From an uncultured Candidatus Saccharibacteria bacterium (lineage in GTDB: Bacteria > Patescibacteriota > Minisyncoccia > Phycocordibacterales > UBA9973): a DNA stretch of 64,000 nt. Under the pieces are notes generated by a model that saw only the letters and a program-made list of their open reading frames with translations, was not told where the DNA came from and did not search any database. Shown here one piece after another: positions 4,059 to 64,000 of this stretch. Every line of letters begins with the position of its first letter. The stretch's first letter is position 1. A program made the translations under genes and the position numbers. Location of the stretch: assembly GCA_964634365.1 (NCBI GenBank), contig CAZWJU010000002.1, positions 167,150-231,149 of the forward strand. Direction: 5' to 3'.

Positions 4059-4253
4059 GTCGGGGTGCCGGGTGAGCCGTGTGAGGGAACCCTGTGGGTG
4101 GACGGCGCAAGACCTTTTGAGATATCTTTACGAATATTTGAAGTAAAGTATCCAAAAGGTGTACAGGTTCTGTAAGAACTCGAACCCAGAGTCGCCTCTA
4201 TAATGATCCTCGAATACCGTTTATATACCTGGAGGTTGTTCTTAAAAGTTTTG
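4059..4253 (-). repeat. tRNA-Pro trailer element: degenerate direct copy of tRNA-Pro 3' half (aggcgactctgggttcgagttc) plus exact 14-nt copy of the tRNA 3' end (gtcggggtgccggg at 4059-4072), with a 70% GC segment in between
   Basis: Direct sequence comparison with tRNA-Pro at 4254-4326; spurious 114-aa ORF 4049..4393 overlies it. Confidence 0.6.
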
Positions 4254-4326
4254 TCGGGGTGCCGGGATTCGAACCCGGAGTCGCCTGTTCCCAAAACAGG
4301 AATGTTAGCCGTTACACTACACCCCG
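4254..4326 (-). tRNA. tRNA-Pro (anticodon TGG), no encoded CCA
   Basis: Reverse complement folds as cggggtg/caccccg acceptor, anticodon stem cctgt/acagg with loop tttggga, T-arm ccggg-ttcgaat-cccgg; 73 nt. Confidence 0.8.
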
Positions 4327-21519: not shown

Positions 21520-21591
21520 ACGTTCAATTTAAAAAATCAGACCCTTGGTCTGATTTTTTAAATTGAATAAAATAAGATAAAATTAAACATA

Positions 21592-32125: not shown

Positions 32126-33334
32126 ATGAAAGTTATAGTAGATGAAGCAAAAATAGATGAAATATTGAGCCGTGGAGTTCATGAAGTTTTTACAAAAGAA
32201 GAACTAAAAAAGAAGCTAATGAGCGGCAAACAATTGCATATAAAACTCGGTACAGATGTAACCGGAGCTTTTTTGCATCTTGGACACTCTGTTTTACATA
32301 GAAAAGTTAGAGATTTTCAAGAGCTTGGACATAAAGTAACTTTGATAGTGGGTGATTTCACAACCCTAGTTGGAGATCATTCTGACAAGGTTGATATGAG
32401 AGCTGATATAACAGAAGATCAGATAAAGAAAAACCAAAAAGGTTGGGAGAAACAATTCTATAAAACAATAATTAAAAAATCTTCAAAGATAAAGAAAAAT
32501 TCAGAGTGGCTTAAAAAACTTACATTTAAAGATGTTTTGAATCTAACAAAGCAATTTACTGTTTCTCAGATGTTAGATAGAGAAACTTTTCTACTAAGAT
32601 ATAACTCTGGGAAACCAATTGGTTTAGATGAGTTTCTATACCCACTAATGCAAGGCTATGATTCTGTTGCTATAAAATGCGATGTAGAAATTGGAGCAAC
32701 AGACCAAACCTTCAATCTTTTGGCCGGAAGAAGGCTTATGGAAGCATTTTCTATAAAACCACAGTCTGCTTTGGTTATGAAACTTTTAGTTGGTAGCGAT
32801 GGAAGACCGATGGGGAAGAGTTTGCAAAATTTTATTGCAATAAGCGAAGACCCAAACGAAATGTACGGTAAAATAATGTCTATCGTCGATTCTGTAATAT
32901 TTGAATATTTCGAGCTTGTAACAAGAGTTCCTATGCAAAAAATAGAAGAAATGAAAAAAGCTGTTTCAAACGGCGAAAACCCAATGATATACAAAAAGAT
33001 ATTGGCAAAAGAAATAGTTGGTTTTTACCACGGAGAAGATTCTGCAAAAAAAGCCGAAGAAGCTTTTGAAAATACTTTTAGTAAAGGCGAAATTCCAGAA
33101 GATATCAAAAAAGTAACTGTAAAAATAAAAATGCCTCTTGTTGATATTTTGATTAAAAACGGTATGGTTTCTTCTAAATCAGAATTCAGAAGACTGGTAG
33201 AAGAGGGCGCAATAAAACTTCATGTAAACATGGAAGAAAAGAAAATAATAGACCCAAATACTCTAATAGAAGGCGATGGAGCTATAAAAATTGGTAAAAA
33301 AAGGTTTATACATATAACTGTTCAGAAAAAATAA
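32126..33334 (+). CDS. tyrS: Tyrosyl-tRNA synthetase (class I, C-terminal S4 domain)
   Basis: HLGH (HIGH) motif, KMGKS-like (PMGKSLQN), C-terminal S4 EFRRLVEEGAIKL; terminator aacccactttgtgggtt at 33337-33360. Confidence 0.8.
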   Translation: MKVIVDEAKIDEILSRGVHEVFTKEELKKKLMSGKQLHIKLGTDVTGAFLHLGHSVLHRKVRDFQELGHKVTLIVGDFTTLVGDHSDKVDMRADITEDQIKKNQKGWEKQFYKTIIKKSSKIKKNSEWLKKLTFKDVLNLTKQFTVSQMLDRETFLLRYNSGKPIGLDEFLYPLMQGYDSVAIKCDVEIGATDQTFNLLAGRRLMEAFSIKPQSALVMKLLVGSDGRPMGKSLQNFIAISEDPNEMYGKIMSIVDSVIFEYFELVTRVPMQKIEEMKKAVSNGENPMIYKKILAKEIVGFYHGEDSAKKAEEAFENTFSKGEIPEDIKKVTVKIKMPLVDILIKNGMVSSKSEFRRLVEEGAIKLHVNMEEKKIIDPNTLIEGDGAIKIGKKRFIHITVQKK

Positions 33335-33362
33335 AAAACCCACTTTGTGGGTTTTTTATTTT

Positions 33363-33518
33363 TTAATATGATTCGTCTTCATCTTCTCCGTCTTCTCCAT
33401 CTTCTTCTGCAATAACGTCATCTATAGATAAAAGATCTTCATCTAAAGCGTCGTCTCCATCTAGAGCTTCAAGAAGGTCTTCTTCGTTTAAATCCTTATC
33501 TTCTTCTTCGTTGTACAT
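33363..33518 (-). CDS. Possible small highly acidic protein (51 aa: MYNEEEDKDLNEEDLLEALDGDDALDEDLLSIDDVIAEEDGEDGEDEDESY)
   Basis: Hand translation of minus strand; absent from ORF track; codon-level periodicity of GAA/GAT repeats. Confidence 0.3.
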   Translation of the reverse strand: MYNEEEDKDLNEEDLLEALDGDDALDEDLLSIDDVIAEEDGEDGEDEDESY

Positions 33519-34113: not shown

Positions 34114-34345
34114 CATGTATAGATTATGATTTATTAATATTAATTTTACCAATTGACAATAAAAGCATCTCTTGTTAGATTACATACCGAAATGTTTTTA
34201 TGGGGATCCTTCGGCCAAAGCTCCTGTAAAAAGGTGTGGAGGCTGAAGGTTTTAAAATAAATTCTGATAGTATTTATCAGAAAAACTTTGTTCTTTTCAT
34301 ACTTGAACAAAATGGGGGTTTCCTGGAAACGGGAAGCCCCCTATT

Positions 34346-35374
34346 TTATTTTTCTAATTCTTTGTATTCAAAACTCAAATGCTCATAGGCTTTTTTTGTT
34401 ACAACTCTCCCTCTCGGTGTTCTATCAAGCAAACCTCTTTGTATTAAATACGGCTCCACAACATCTTCTATGGTCGCCTCCTCTTCGCTTGTTGCTGCTG
34501 CAATAGTGTTTAGTCCAACAGGTCCACCTTCAAATTTTTCTATAATAGTAGTTAGTATAGATCTGTCTACTTCAGACAATCCAAGCTCGTCTATTCCAAG
34601 TAGAGAAAGAGCCAAGAATACGGTTTTTTTATCTAAATCTTTTTTGTGTACTTGAGCATAGTCTCGAACTCTTTTCAGAAAATAGTTTGCAGTACGTGGA
34701 GTAAATCTACTTCTTTTTGCAATTTCAGATACAGCTTCTCCCTCCAGTTCTACACCAAGAATTTTTGCAGATCTATTTATGATTTTTGATATCTCTTCTT
34801 CTTTGTAAAATTCTAGACGAAAAGTTCCTCCAGAAAATCTTGATCTAAGTGGAGCAGAAAGTAGTGCTATACGAGTTGTCGCTGCGATAAGTGTAAATGC
34901 AGGTAGGTCTAGTTGAATAGTTCTAGCTGAAGGTCCTTTGCCTATAATAATATCTAGAATCCCACTCTCCATTGCTGGATACAGAACTTCCTCAACCATT
35001 TTATTTAGTCTATGTATTTCGTCTATAAACAAAATATCTCCAGAAGAAAGGTTTGTTAATATAGAAGCTAGATCACCAACTTTTTCTATGGCCGGACCAG
35101 ATGTGATTTTTATCTGTCTGTTTGTTTCCTTGGCTATTAGATGGGCGAGAGTAGTTTTTCCAAGACCTGGTGGACCATAAAACAATATATGTTCTGCGGG
35201 GTGATTTCTCTCCTTTGCTGCGGTGAGTAATATACGCAAGTTTTCCTTGATTTGCTCTTGGCCGACGTACTCTTCCCATGTTTGTGGGCGCAAAGTTAGA
35301 TCAAGCCTAGTATCTGTATTTTCTCTCTTTTCTTCCATGTGGTAAGTATAACCCATACTGCCGGTAGTTGACAA
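34346..35374 (-). CDS. ruvB: Holliday junction branch-migration helicase RuvB
   Basis: [13 protein letters not shown], Walker [22 protein letters not shown], winged-helix C-terminus. Confidence 0.95.
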
Positions 35375-35734
35375 AAAAATTCTAATATGCTAAGATGTGT
35401 TTAGTTGTAACGACCTCGGTCGTGCAGGAAACATATAAAAGCCAACAAAATATAGGGCTTTTTATTTTTGCACTATTTTCCACACAATGTCCACAAGACG
35501 ATATTTTTTACGTCTAGGCAAGTGCAAAAGTATACGTATACTTATAAAGCGATCAGTTACTAAAGAGGACATAAATCTCTAAGCAATCAGATGAATTTCT
35601 ATATGTATTTGCGTAGGACGTTCTGGTACTATTTATAGACCACTGGGGCTATCCTTCAAAAATATGTTACTTACTAGGCCTAGCCTTTTAAGGATTGTTT
35701 AGAGATTTATGTTTTTTTTGTTTTAAAATAAAAA

Positions 35735-35770
35735 TCTAAAACCCGTCTCTGGCGGGGTTTATTTTTCTAA
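35735..35770. terminator. Hairpin aacccgtctctggcggggtt with flanking A/T runs
   Basis: Inverted repeat in long non-coding region. Confidence 0.4.
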
Positions 35771-35799
35771 TCGTTACTTTTTCAAAAAACAACTCACTT

Positions 35800-35889
35800 A
35801 ATAGTGTTTCAAAAGACACGAAAATTTACTGCTATAAATTTTCTTTGTTTCGCGCCGTCGCACTACACAGAGTCTTTTGAAACACTATT
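35800..35889. repeat. Hairpin element 1: perfect 18-bp inverted repeat AATAGTGTTTCAAAAGAC / GTCTTTTGAAACACTATT enclosing a 54-nt GC-richer loop (..cgcgccgtcgcac..)
   Basis: Read directly; lies in 750-bp gene-free region. Confidence 0.6.
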
Positions 35890-35954
35890 TGCGTTCGTCT
35901 AGATATGTAAATCTACAAGGCAAAGTTAGGCTCCAAGAATTCTAAATACACCAA

Positions 35955-36046
35955 TCCATACTTTTAAAAAGCCTAACGGAACGCGTCGGCGTGAGTTTGA
36001 GGGATTTTTCAGCAGAAAAATACCCGTGCTTTTTAAAAGTTATGGA
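35955..36046. repeat. Hairpin element 2: 18-bp near-perfect inverted repeat TCCATACTTTTAAAAAGC / GCTTTTTAAAAGTTATGGA enclosing a 55-nt loop (..cgcgtcggcgtga..)
   Basis: Read directly; same architecture and similar loop motif as element 1. Confidence 0.6.
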
Positions 36047-36129
36047 TAAAATAAAGTTTTCCGGAAACTGGGCTATGAGTTACTGCGAACTTAATATGGG
36101 TTACAAAAAATAAAAACCCTTACGGGTTT

Positions 36130-37827
36130 CTATTCTTCATCAAGTTCTACAACACTCTTCACCTCAGACAAACTTGTTACTCCCATTAGTACTTTTACAA
36201 TTCCGTCTTCTTTCATATCGAGCGTGCCTTGTGCATGTGCAGTTCTTTTTATTTCTCGTTCACTTGGATTTTCTGGGATGATTTTTTCAATCGATTCATC
36301 GGTTTGGATTGCTTCAAATATTCCCATTCGTCCCTTGTATCCTGTACCGTTACAAGCCGGGCATCCAACAGCGCTCCATATTTTTAGAGTTTGATTTGGA
36401 TCTACGTTTACCTCTTCAACTATTTTATTTTCGTTTTTTATACCAGTTAAAATTTTTCTCATTACAACTTCATCTTCCTTTGATATTTCTTGTTCTTTTT
36501 TACATTCGTTGCAAAGTTTTCTTACAAGTCTTTGTGCTATAGACAAACGTAGCGCTGACACAAGTATTTTTGGATTTACTTCCAAGTCTATAAGACGAGG
36601 GATCACACCTCCTGCATTGTTTGTGTGAAGCGTCGAGAAAACCAAGTGCCCAGTCAACGCACTTTCTACTGCAATCTTTGCAGTTTCAGAATCGCGTATT
36701 TCTCCGACCATTATCACATCTGGGTCTTGGCGGAGCGCGCTACGCAAACCTTCTAGGAAAGAATAATTTTTTTCTACTTGTGTTTGTGTGATACCTGCAA
36801 GGTGGTATTCTATTGGGTCTTCGATTGTGATTATTTTCAATTCACTTGAATATATTTTACGCAAAAATGCGTACAGTGTTGTGGTTTTACCCGAACCAGT
36901 CGGACCTGTGATAAGTATAAGTCCGTTTGGTTTTGCTATTTCAGCTTCCATAACTGATAAAAGTTTTTTTGGAATACCCATCTCGTCTAGATTTACTTGA
37001 ATTGATTTTGGATCTAGAATTCTCATCACGATTGATTCGCCATATGCTCCTGGTATTACAGATACACGCATAGATATTTCAGTTCCGTCTGATTGGTAAA
37101 TACTAAATCTTCCATCTTGCGCCACACTTTTTATTACAAGTTTTAAACCAGAAACAAGTTTAATACGAGAGTTTACGAGTTTGTAAGTTTCGTGTGGGAA
37201 GGTAAGTATGTTTTGTAGCACACCATCTAGTCTAAAACGCACCTGAACATTGTCCTCGCCTGGTTCTATATGAATATCAGATGCTTTTATAGCAATAGCT
37301 CCACCGAGTATTATTTCTAGCATGTGAGATAGTTTGTGTGTTTTACTGTCGCTCGCAACTTCTTCTACAGTTTTTGCTACATCGTCTATGCTATGGATTT
37401 TTTGTGCGATATCTAAAAGTGCTTCACTGGATATATCTAAGCCACCAGCCTTTGAAGCAGAAGCAAAAGATATTTCTCCATATCTAGACCAAGCCTTCTC
37501 TAAAGAGGCAAGAGAAGCCATATATAGAATCGGATTGTAGTTTTGGCTTTTTATATCTTCAAGTACTTGTGTTAAGTCTTCTCGGACAGGGGATCTAACT
37601 GCGATATGTAGATTTTTACCAAGCACCTTGAAAGGGGCGATCTCTACAGCTTTAGCAGTTTTTTCAGGTACGATACGAAGCGCTTCGTTTTCAATAGTTG
37701 TACTAGATAGATCAATATAGGGGATATTGTATTTTGCAGCAGACAGAATACGAACCAAGTCCTCTTCTTCTTGGTATTTTAAGTCCTCGAGACGCTTTTT
37801 TTGTTTATCCTCATCAAATTGGATCAT
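36130..37827 (-). CDS. pilB: Type IV pilus / type II secretion assembly ATPase (GspE/PilB family); probable start at MIQFDEDKQ (frame extends to 37905)
   Basis: Walker A GPTGSGKTTT, Asp box, His box, C-terminal zinc tetracysteine (CNECKK..CPACNGTG); terminator aaaccc ttac gggttt at 36108-36133. Confidence 0.85.
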   Translation of the reverse strand: MIQFDEDKQKKRLEDLKYQEEEDLVRILSAAKYNIPYIDLSSTTIENEALRIVPEKTAKAVEIAPFKVLGKNLHIAVRSPVREDLTQVLEDIKSQNYNPILYMASLASLEKAWSRYGEISFASASKAGGLDISSEALLDIAQKIHSIDDVAKTVEEVASDSKTHKLSHMLEIILGGAIAIKASDIHIEPGEDNVQVRFRLDGVLQNILTFPHETYKLVNSRIKLVSGLKLVIKSVAQDGRFSIYQSDGTEISMRVSVIPGAYGESIVMRILDPKSIQVNLDEMGIPKKLLSVMEAEIAKPNGLILITGPTGSGKTTTLYAFLRKIYSSELKIITIEDPIEYHLAGITQTQVEKNYSFLEGLRSALRQDPDVIMVGEIRDSETAKIAVESALTGHLVFSTLHTNNAGGVIPRLIDLEVNPKILVSALRLSIAQRLVRKLCNECKKEQEISKEDEVVMRKILTGIKNENKIVEEVNVDPNQTLKIWSAVGCPACNGTGYKGRMGIFEAIQTDESIEKIIPENPSEREIKRTAHAQGTLDMKEDGIVKVLMGVTSLSEVKSVVELDEE

Positions 37828-46930: not shown

Positions 46931-47003
46931 CCTCCCGTAGCTCAGTCGGTAGAGCAGCTCCCTTTTAAGGAGAGGGTCGTAGGTTCGATTCCTACCGGGA
47001 GGA
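46931..47003 (+). tRNA. tRNA-Lys (anticodon TTT), no encoded CCA
   Basis: cctcccg-ta-gctc-agtcggta-gagc-a-gctcc-cttttaa-ggaga-gggtc-gtagg-ttcgatt-cctac-cgggagg-a. Confidence 0.7.
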
Positions 47004-47180
47004 CAAGGTCGAAAAAGTGGACTGCTCCACTTTTGAGTACACTTGTCCTAGACGGAAACATGTTTCGTTAGCAGACGAAACAGTTGAGTCGGGGTCGCAG
47101 AAAAATACGAGCGGCGGCGAGTATTTTATCTGTGACGACACATTCACTCTTAAATAAGGAAAGATTCCTACCAAGATAAT
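47004..47180 (+). repeat. tRNA-Lys trailer element: hairpin aaaagtggaCTGCtccactttt, core GAGTCGGGGTCGC (47086-47098) ...ACGAGCGGCGGCGAGTA..TGTGACGACA, ending with a 10-nt copy of the tRNA 3' region (gattcctacc, 47163-47172)
   Basis: Aligned by eye with the element after tRNA-Arg(GCG) (53146-53300) and after tRNA-Gly(GCC). Confidence 0.55.
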
Positions 47181-53073: not shown

Positions 53074-53145
53074 GGCCCCGTAGTTCAACGGATAGAATGC
53101 AAGATTGCGGATCTTGTGATCCAAGTTCGATTCTTGGCGGGGTCA
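53074..53145 (+). tRNA. tRNA-Arg (anticodon GCG as read; loop ttgcgga), no encoded CCA
   Basis: ggccccg-ta-gttc-aacggata-gaat-g-caaga-ttgcgga-tcttg-tgat-ccaag-ttcgatt-cttgg-cggggtc-a; 72 nt. Confidence 0.6.
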
Positions 53146-53420
53146 CATATAAGAAAAAGACTGGACTGCTCCAGCCTTTTTCTTATATGTGACGGGCGCA
53201 GTGATGTTTTATTAGAGAACAAAACCACGAGCCGGGGTCGAGAAATTTTGCGAGTGGCGACGAGTAAAATATTCGTGACCACAAGGTGGTATAATGAGCA
53301 GACTTAGTAACTTGTGACCACATTAAATCTCTATGTGACGACAAGAAATTGTTTGTAGCCACACTACTAAAAGTCGCGATAAATTTCCATCAGGAAATTT
53401 ACTTGTGATCATACCTAAAA
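53146..53420 (+). repeat. tRNA-Arg trailer element expanded into an iteron-like array: 16-bp-stem hairpin with loop actggaCTGCtccagc (53146-53193), core GAGCCGGGGTCG (53229-53240)...GCGAGTGGCGACGAGTA, then 5-6 copies of (T)TGTGAC(N)ACA-like sites
   Basis: Sites read at 53180(tatgtgacggg), 53271(ttcgtgaccaca), 53311(cttgtgaccaca), 53332(tatgtgacgaca), 53356(ttgtagccaca), 53401(cttgtgatcata); followed by an AT-rich stretch to 53610. Confidence 0.55.
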
Positions 53421-63820: not shown

Positions 63821-64000
63821 CATATACGTAAGTATATTGGAGGCGTGGCTGAGTGGAATAAATATAAACTGCTTTATATTTATTCCGAAGGAGGACAACC
63901 ACTTAGCCACGCTTCCCAAAGGGCGACAATACGTAAGTATATTGGAGGCGTGGCTGAGTGGAATAAATATAAACTGCTTTATATTTATTCCGAAGGAGGA
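63821..64000. repeat. Tandem direct repeat (period ~104 nt, at least 1.7 copies, truncated by window end); each unit contains nested inverted repeats GGAGGCGTGGCTGAGTGG / CCACTTAGCCACGCTTCC around a perfect palindrome AATAAATATAAA-CTGC-TTTATATTTATT
   Basis: 63821-63897 is identical to 63925-64000 over at least 76 nt. Confidence 0.6.

Follow-up and report, generated by a model that had tools for sequence, protein, structure and literature searches.

Paired hairpins between ruvB and pilB as probable old copies of a dispersed palindromic element of Patescibacteria

Introduction

What are the two long hairpins that lie close together between ruvB and pilB in a bacterium belonging to Patescibacteria, also called the candidate phyla radiation (CPR)? 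Genomes of this radiation of ultra-small bacteria are tiny, tightly packed and usually described as poor in repeats and mobile DNA. The hairpins (E1, 35800-35889; E2, 35954-36047) were analyzed in a 64,000-nucleotide stretch of contig CAZWJU010000002.1 (assembly GCA_964634365.1), hereafter the window, whose host was placed in the Nomurabacteria/Paceibacteria group (RuvB 92% identical to that of a Candidatus Paceibacterota metagenome-assembled genome, L001). The original prediction, made from the letters of the window, had described two tandem elements and offered three explanations: small RNAs, MITE copies (miniature inverted-repeat transposable elements), or recombination sites. The MITE-like suggestion came closest to the evidence; independent small RNAs were not supported as a general reading, and neither was a recombination site of the attC type.

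E1 and E2 are probably old and diverged members of a palindromic insertion element family that is dispersed in Patescibacteria, had not been described before and resembles Rickettsia palindromic elements (RPE) and MITEs. Each copy is an imperfect palindrome of about 85-140 bp. One of its strands (the folded or F strand) forms a long stem that varies in sequence and bears at its top a conserved three-way junction of T or Y shape, the head. The family has spread to unrelated sites (the 3' ends of genes, 2-nt gene junctions and, in frame, the interior of conserved genes) in random orientation with respect to neighboring genes, and the whole hairpin can later flip at a given site. Full-text literature searches returned no description of such elements in CPR bacteria.

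Structure of E1 and E2

Both units were scored with R3, the third covariance model constructed, which was built from 72 metagenome copies only and is hence independent of the window. For E1 the minus strand scored 79.2 bits (E=3e-21), compared with 12.7 bits for the plus strand; E2 scored 77.2 bits (E=1.5e-20) on the plus strand. Over the 64 kb the opposite strands of E1 and E2 reached at most 12.7 bits and nothing else exceeded 17 bits. The two units folded much more stably than shuffled sequences, with z scores of -5.0 to -7.6 on either strand with RNA or DNA parameters (E1, -7.6 with RNA and -7.5 with DNA parameters; E2, -5.6).

The F strand carries, in order, the 5' arm of stem P1, a GC-rich P2 arm (made up of a short lower helix, an internal loop rich in purines and a 4-bp upper helix with a GACG or GUCG loop), a P3 arm (A/U-rich helix with an AGCA loop), the dinucleotide GU and the returning arm of P1. 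In E1, which folds on the minus strand, the P1 arms at 35872-35889 (5'; AAUAGUGUUUCAAAAGAC on the folded strand) and 35800-35817 (3') were 100% complementary with 54 nt between them, which bears out the perfect 18-bp stem originally described. This 18-nt inverted repeat is unique in the window: the 18-mer was found at only two places, and at least two matches were obtained in 0 of 100 shuffles. The P2 arm of E1 (35844-35871) has a UGU/ACA lower helix, the internal loop, and a GUGC/GCGC upper helix (35860-35863 with 35852-35855) closed by the loop GACG (35856-35859), and its P3 hairpin (35820-35843) reads GAAAAUUUAU-AGCA-GUAAAUUUUC.

The stem of E2, which folds on the plus strand, had also been called a perfect 18-bp helix and is less regular than that. 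Its perfect core spans only 13 bp (35960-35972/36028-36040) and extends to 19 pairs with one bulged T, formed by a 5' arm of 19 nt (35954-35972) and a 3' arm of 20 nt (36028-36047); the repeat tool reported it as 17 nt at 82%. The P2 arm of E2 (35973-36000) has an AAC/GUU lower helix, a GGA/GA internal loop and an ACGC/GCGU upper helix (35981-35984 with 35989-35992) with the loop GUCG (35985-35988), followed by the P3 hairpin at 36001-36025 (GGGAUUUUUC-AGCA-GAAAAAUACCC).

Minus-strand E1 aligned with plus-strand E2 over 56 invariant columns with no gaps, whereas the plus/plus alignment gave 43 and required gaps. The units are hence not tandem, as first thought; they stand head-to-head, with a 64-bp spacer (35890-35953) between their 5' ends. 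The similar loop words noticed earlier are related once one of them is reverse-complemented (on the folded strand they read GUGCGACGGCGC and ACGCGUCGGCGU), and the loops themselves, taken at first for plain GC-rich sequence, each contain two hairpins and so form a three-way junction. It was correct that the stems differ: P1 of E1 and P1 of E2 share no sequence, though both are paired.

The Rfam search proposed with the original prediction returned no family matching E1 or E2. At the gathering threshold only tRNAs passed in the window. With the limit relaxed to E<=10 for 35200-36300, and to E<=5 for seven related loci, nothing relevant was found, and permissive matches were otherwise chance miRNA-like hairpins.

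Copies in other genomes and covariation

The 80 best RuvB loci of relatives, all from the Nomurabacteria/Paceibacteria group, were examined. A first covariance model was built from E1, E2 and three relatives detected by blastn, and with it 19 additional copies were found within these 80 loci. Metagenome loci were then gathered by one scan with a P3 sequence pattern, which yielded 120 loci; full units were present in most of them, and many held further copies without the search word. The family is defined here by models R2 and R3. About 100 further copies of 80-178 nt were obtained in this way from Nomurabacteria/Paceibacteria genomes and from freshwater and groundwater metagenomes. Family statistics were calculated from an alignment of 99 copies, and context statistics rest on crude open reading frame (ORF) calls. 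Viral contigs scanned with the P3 18-mer gave 61 loci, 0 of which were confirmed by the model (chance matches).

Paired cells made up 93.2% of the alignment at modelled pairs, compared with 63% in shuffles, and changes on both sides were seen in all 26 of the modelled pairs (P1, P2b and P3 helices), those of P2b included. The covariation score was 0.757, compared with 0.19 for shuffles and 0.10-0.13 for slid controls. Unique stem words and a lack of conservation had been named together in the original prediction as grounds for discarding the elements; the 18-mers are unique in the window, yet the structure is strongly conserved across the family, and uniqueness would have been a misleading guide.

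Pairing was strand-specific. The F strand held 106 G-U/U-G pairs and 17 A-C/C-A pairs, an excess which identifies one strand as the folded one. Past its modelled part the stem often goes on by way of A-G and tandem G-A appositions, which brings the whole hairpin to 110-178 nt; examples are 5'-GAGCGA / 5'-GAGCG and a 6x6 loop GUCGCA/GAGAAA with AAACUC/GAGUUU as its closing helix. A-G was the first mismatch beyond the stem in 30 copies, compared with 2 that had the mirror form C-T; tandem GA/GA was observed 7 times and TC/TC never. Duplication of an inverted repeat in DNA cannot yield this G-U and G-A asymmetry, which points to a constraint on the F strand in single-stranded form, whether RNA or DNA. 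No F-strand-specific promoter, extended -10 or U-run signal was found across the family. An extended -10-like sequence (TGCTATAAA) in the complement of E1 P3 was considered as an internal promoter and rejected, as it is not conserved across the family.

Insertion sites and orientation

The spacer between ruvB and ruvC supplied both empty and filled sites. In about 25 relatives it measures -20 to +7 nt (2 nt in most), whereas in L056, L038, L039, L045 and L047 it measures 139-187 nt, nearly all of it one long hairpin with the family head. L001, the closest relative of the window, has a different gene upstream and no copy of the element.

Ten of the 99 copies lay inside long ORFs, 6 sense and 4 antisense, and the frame was open in all of them. 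The host genes encode UvrD, a XerC/D-type recombinase (L156), TsaD, Dus, RecG, KsgA (three loci) and Fmt. In alignments to solved structures the extra residues mapped exactly onto the element (KsgA, amino acids 108-143; TsaD, amino acids 206-242), and the predicted element-encoded peptide reads, in one example, ...QRKFSAENFRGE... The P3 palindrome AAATTTTCAGCAGAAAATTT encodes K-F-S-A-E-N-F in both orientations, so flipping leaves the frame open and keeps part of the peptide. A KsgA/RsmA site just before YKIIANIPY is shared by three copies (L194:6032-6132, L208:9888-9988 and L167:10948-11048) which differ in orientation and reading phase; it is either an insertion hot spot or the site of an old insertion later flipped and frame-shifted.

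Between genes, copies were found beside diverse, unrelated housekeeping genes, usually with gaps of 5-40 nt, and the ORFs beside tight intergenic copies were complete separate genes, not split halves. Between co-directional genes 23 copies were sense and 21 antisense; 19 copies lay between convergent genes and only 4 between divergent genes. Some loci or contigs held 3-4 copies within 3-6 kb. Among 14 pairs of elements at least 80% identical, the flanks were unrelated in 12, as for the copies in RecG and KsgA (83%).

Orientation also differed at orthologous sites: after ruvB (L056 and L038 versus L039 and L045), after pilB and at one KsgA site. The hairpin was flipped as a whole, with its asymmetric mismatches and its outer flanks.

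Neighboring copies were arranged head-to-head in 5 of 6 adjacent pairs, with the left copy folded on the minus strand and the right copy on the plus strand (E1/E2 in the window, L241:5201-5431, L188:1770-2023, L240:2957-3342 and L233:3483-3838); the only tandem pair was L184:4238-4439.

Assessment of the insertion-element reading

The distribution, the compensatory changes and the flips were read together as those of a palindromic insertion element. Its propagation would pass through a single-stranded intermediate, DNA or RNA, in which a trans-acting enzyme would recognize the folded head; recognition of this kind would account for the F strand alone retaining its pairing, G-U wobbles and G-A mismatches. 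Flipping may come about through a switch of template inside the palindrome, as happens in other hairpin inversions of the 'flip-flop' kind. A further, rather unlikely possibility is that the head is the recognition module of a novel mobilization system of Patescibacteria (an HUH-type or other structure-specific single-stranded DNA enzyme, or RNA-templated copying) that moves a headed hairpin with a variable stem and has flip-flop inversion in its life cycle.

At this locus E1 and E2 sit in a transcriptionally insulated pocket, with the terminator of pilB on one side and that of a neighboring small RNA candidate (E0, described below) on the other. The host is probably little affected, for instance by one more hairpin in read-through transcripts.

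Several results weigh against this reading. No consistent direct repeat that could represent a target-site duplication was found at 96 stem ends or where filled ruvB-ruvC sites were compared with empty ones; the apparent GAGCG repeats are more plausibly helix extensions containing G-A appositions, and old copies are expected to lose their target-site duplications (PMC10969869). Genes for a transposase, a reverse transcriptase or an HUH protein were not found beside any copy, nor was an insertion sequence (IS) seen in any locus. Arm sequences vary between most copies, unlike the terminal repeats of classical MITEs, and the conserved part is the three-way-junction head; shared ends occur only within subfamilies (for example TTAAAATAG...CTATTTTAA). 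Identity between E1 and E2 is only about 50%, and each of them is nearer to the copy at the same site in another genome (L009 and L017) than to its partner, which marks them as old residents of the lineage rather than recent jumps. Since the P3 word was used to choose the metagenome set, conservation of P3 there is partly inflated by sampling. The structure of one strand, including the non-Watson-Crick G-A motifs of the outer stem, is well kept, and this could instead mean that the folded strand serves the host. The excess of head-to-head pairs, finally, is not predicted by a purely selfish model and is unexplained by any model considered. Possible co-option of the folded strand by the host would explain both the head-to-head pairs and the persistence of strand-specific G-A motifs in old copies.

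Alternative explanations

One unlikely alternative is that the units are structured RNAs with a function for the host: two divergent small RNAs ending at the flanking terminators in the window, and elsewhere cis-acting three-way-junction motifs in mRNAs that bind protein, direct processing or stabilize 3' ends. The very strong covariation and the strand-specific pairing, with its G-U and tandem G-A appositions, agree with such a role, as does the preference of copies for gene 3' ends. E1 and E2 diverge from their 64-bp spacer with a hairpin terminator within about 45-80 nt after each, and -10-like hexamers were in weak excess 20-39 nt upstream of the F strand (30 versus 15). Against this, antisense copies were about as frequent as sense copies between co-directional genes (21 and 23) and made up 4 of the 10 intragenic copies; the F strand has neither a U-run nor an extended -10 bias, and the 64-bp spacer in the window offers only weak sigma-70-like matches. 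Copies have been inserted into 2-nt gene junctions and coding sequence, and many are wedged with only 5-30 nt on each side, or inside genes, in either orientation. This leaves no room for promoters, and independent small RNA genes are unsupported as a general reading. The small RNA explanation fits the window locus and not the family as a whole; at this locus specifically, E1 and E2 may be small RNA genes.

Structure-specific DNA sites for recombination or inversion were judged highly improbable, whether as attC-like folded single strands on which a tyrosine recombinase acts or as small switches that invert between the stem arms. Integron attC sites have a conserved structure, a variable sequence, one functional strand and a position after stop codons, and their conserved part is the stem base (R and L boxes with the GTTRRRY core). 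The present units share the structural conservation, the sequence variability and the constraint on one strand, and their orientation flips at orthologous sites. Some copies directly follow stop codons in runs of genes (L195 and L252), and a tyrosine recombinase gene adjoins copies in L195 and L180. That gene, however, belongs to a conserved recombinase-exonuclease gene pair, and in L156 a gene of this kind is itself interrupted by a copy. The conservation is also the reverse of that in attC: the tip is conserved, the stem bases are unrelated in sequence between copies, no R or L box and no GTTRRRY/RYYYAAC pair was seen at the stem base, and the neighbors are core housekeeping genes rather than cassettes. 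An interior of 54 nt would also be very short for a recombinase to invert.

That the hairpins are inverted repeats arisen by chance, or ordinary terminators of an AT-rich spacer, has next to no probability: the window does hold many 15-24-bp perfect hairpins resembling bidirectional terminators, but these have 3-8-nt loops, whereas E1 and E2 have structured interiors of 54-55 nt, an independent model detects both at E ~1e-20, and about 100 covarying homologues exist.

Three further candidates were rejected. Introns do not account for the intragenic copies, which occur in both orientations with the frame always open, while tight intergenic copies are flanked by complete separate genes. Hammerhead ribozymes have a conserved catalytic core at the junction (for example CUGANGA ... 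GAAA); here the junction strands, compared by eye, are short and variable, and no Rfam ribozyme matched, which also set aside other small self-cleaving ribozymes. In arrays of the TIGR-Tas type each unit has two variable spacers of 8-12 nt with box C/D motifs on their flanks, and the array lies beside a Nop-domain gene (PMC12045711); the interiors here are conserved base-paired hairpins, not variable spacers, and the units are dispersed, with no arrays.

Comparison with known elements

In its way of working the insertion element comes closest to the RPE, a comparison by analogy that implies membership in no named family. Both are short palindromic repeats (about 100-150 bp) dispersed between the genes of a reduced, host-dependent bacterial genome, and both also occur as in-frame inserts in unrelated housekeeping genes, whose products thereby gain a conserved peptide (PMC10969869 for RPE). 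The open reading frame was likewise kept in the 10 of 99 copies inserted in frame here. The two differ in that the arms vary freely in the present family, where conservation lies in a three-way-junction head whose G-U and G-A pairing is strand-specific, in that about 10% of sampled copies are intragenic compared with nearly half in some RPE families, and in their hosts (Patescibacteria versus Alphaproteobacteria).

Prokaryotic MITEs such as Correia, ERIC and QMITE are multi-copy elements of <500 bp that have inverted repeats at their ends, are for the most part AT-rich and intergenic, occur in either orientation and have a predicted stable stem-loop fold (PMC10969869). The present family shares these traits and occupies unrelated sites; it differs in having no family-wide terminal repeat, in showing compensatory change along the whole stem, and in that no related IS or target-site duplication was found.

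Super-families of repetitive extragenic palindromic (REP) sequences carry GTAG or CGTC tags (PMC3733652). REP and REPIN sequences resemble the present units as hairpin-forming extragenic repeats at gene ends that often occur as inverted pairs and presumably act in folded single-stranded form, and the complement of the P2 loop here is CGTC. REPs are, however, simple hairpins of 20-40 bp with the tag at the foot, whereas the present units are three-way junctions of ~90-140 nt with the tetranucleotide in a loop. No gene for a REP-associated tyrosine transposase (RAYT, HUH/Y1) was seen at the loci; association with RAYT was not tested.

In shape alone the folded strand recalls a viral structure. 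The inverted terminal repeats (ITRs) of parvoviruses and adeno-associated virus (AAV) form, in single-stranded DNA, a long stem with two small internal palindromes and a three-way junction, and exist in flip and flop forms. The junction, the two orientations of an asymmetric center and, in some copies, GAGC-type repeats in the stem flanks are the points of likeness; the present units are internal to bacterial chromosomes rather than at replicon ends, and no Rep-like gene is linked to them.

Among bacterial repeats the combination of a conserved head, a freely varying stem and a constraint on one strand is unusual. A palindromic element supported by covariation has spread through the intergenic junctions of CPR genomes and lies in frame in essential genes, among them those for KsgA, TsaD, UvrD, RecG and Fmt. 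'Selfish' coding palindromes, for which Rickettsia is the best-known case, hence have a part in shaping the proteins of this large uncultured radiation as well. The element accounts for unexpected 30-40-residue inserts in CPR proteins and for overlong gene spacers. It provides a marker for strain typing and for the detection of inversions, and a defined structured substrate with which to seek the mobilizing enzyme.

Remainder of the ruvB-pilB spacer

The genes of the locus are all read from the minus strand in the order pilB (37905-36130; a member of the T2SSE family in Pfam), ruvB (35338-34346; Pfam RuvB) and ruvC (34116-33631), with a spacer of 791 nt (35339-36129) between the first two. No exact-protein records were found for the RuvB and PilB of the window. 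The earlier description of the flanking genes as reading into or away from the region holds in that pilB reads into it and ruvB away from it, both on the same strand. The distance between the coding regions is close to the 750 bp first given; the spacer was, however, not free of genes, as it contains the RNA gene candidate E0, two hairpin terminators and two promoter-like sites.

E0 is a candidate for a conserved, unannotated structured small RNA gene outside the element family, as judged from sequence comparison. It spans ~166 nt on the plus strand (35562-35727), with a possible 5' extension from about 35403, and has a 27-bp closing stem followed by a U-run. Its core was found by blastn in nearly all of the 80 RuvB loci; 27 of its 53 pairs showed compensatory changes, and its invariant G-U pairs fit only the plus strand. 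The region 35368-35731 is 86.6% identical to L001, compared with 77% for the DNA of ruvB. No Rfam match was obtained for E0. In layout alone (a closing stem, a large central loop that has a 3' hairpin, and an internal stem) it may be likened to 6S RNA.

Two promoter-like sites diverge at the ruvB end of the spacer. A strong site on the plus strand (TTGACA-17-TAAGAT with an upstream TG, 35368-35396) points towards E0. On the minus strand the site TTGTCA-18-TATACT (35374-35345) ends 6 nt before the ATG of ruvB (35338), which suggests a leaderless ruvB mRNA; this promoter region reads AAATGCTATAAT in many relatives. Between E0 and E1 lies a hairpin terminator (CCCGTCTCTGGCGGG, 35742-35766) with a T-run on the plus strand and a preceding A-run that makes it bidirectional, and between E2 and pilB a second hairpin terminator (36114-36129) directly follows the stop codon of pilB.

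The ruvB-ruvC spacer of the window (34117-34345) measures ~229 nt, and that of L001 213 nt. In the window it begins with a GC hairpin terminator (GGGGGCUUCCC...GGAAACCCCC) and gave no match to the element models.

Other observations

Intergenic hairpins with 15-24-bp perfect or near-perfect stems recur throughout the window, built from an A-run, a GC core and a T-run around loops of 3-8 nt (for example 21523-21567, 53142-53193, 915-958, 2255-2300 and 33326-33364); these are probably unusually long bidirectional intrinsic terminators. Near the end of the window, two identical self-complementary copies of 32 nt (GGAATAAATATAAACTGCTTTATATTTATTCC) were found 105 nt apart (63855-63886 and 63960-63991).

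Two tRNA genes were noted. ARAGORN called a tRNA-Stop with the anticodon tta at 46931-47004 on the plus strand. This looks like an ordinary tRNA-Lys(UUU) when parsed by hand (loop C32-U33-UUU-A37-A38, with a G27-A43 mismatch), the suppressor call being probably a register artefact. A 20-nt inverted repeat (4242-4261/4320-4339, 95% complementary) brackets a tRNA-Pro gene on the minus strand (4253-4326), whose acceptor stem is extended by about 11 bp into the flanks to give an unusually long precursor stem.

Other intergenic cassettes, bounded by long perfect inverted repeats, were seen in relatives (L056:3590-3738, L039:4815-4892 and L056:5588-5737); in one example arms of 22 bp enclose about 100 nt of AT-rich DNA, and another is a perfect 23-bp hairpin whose loop has 4 nt. 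Such cassettes have no three-way-junction head and may represent further palindromic element families. A nucleoside diphosphate kinase of 194 amino acids (L231:2421-3005, minus strand) matched its 135-position Pfam profile in two stretches, which suggests another insertion of ~45 residues that is not a copy of the present element.

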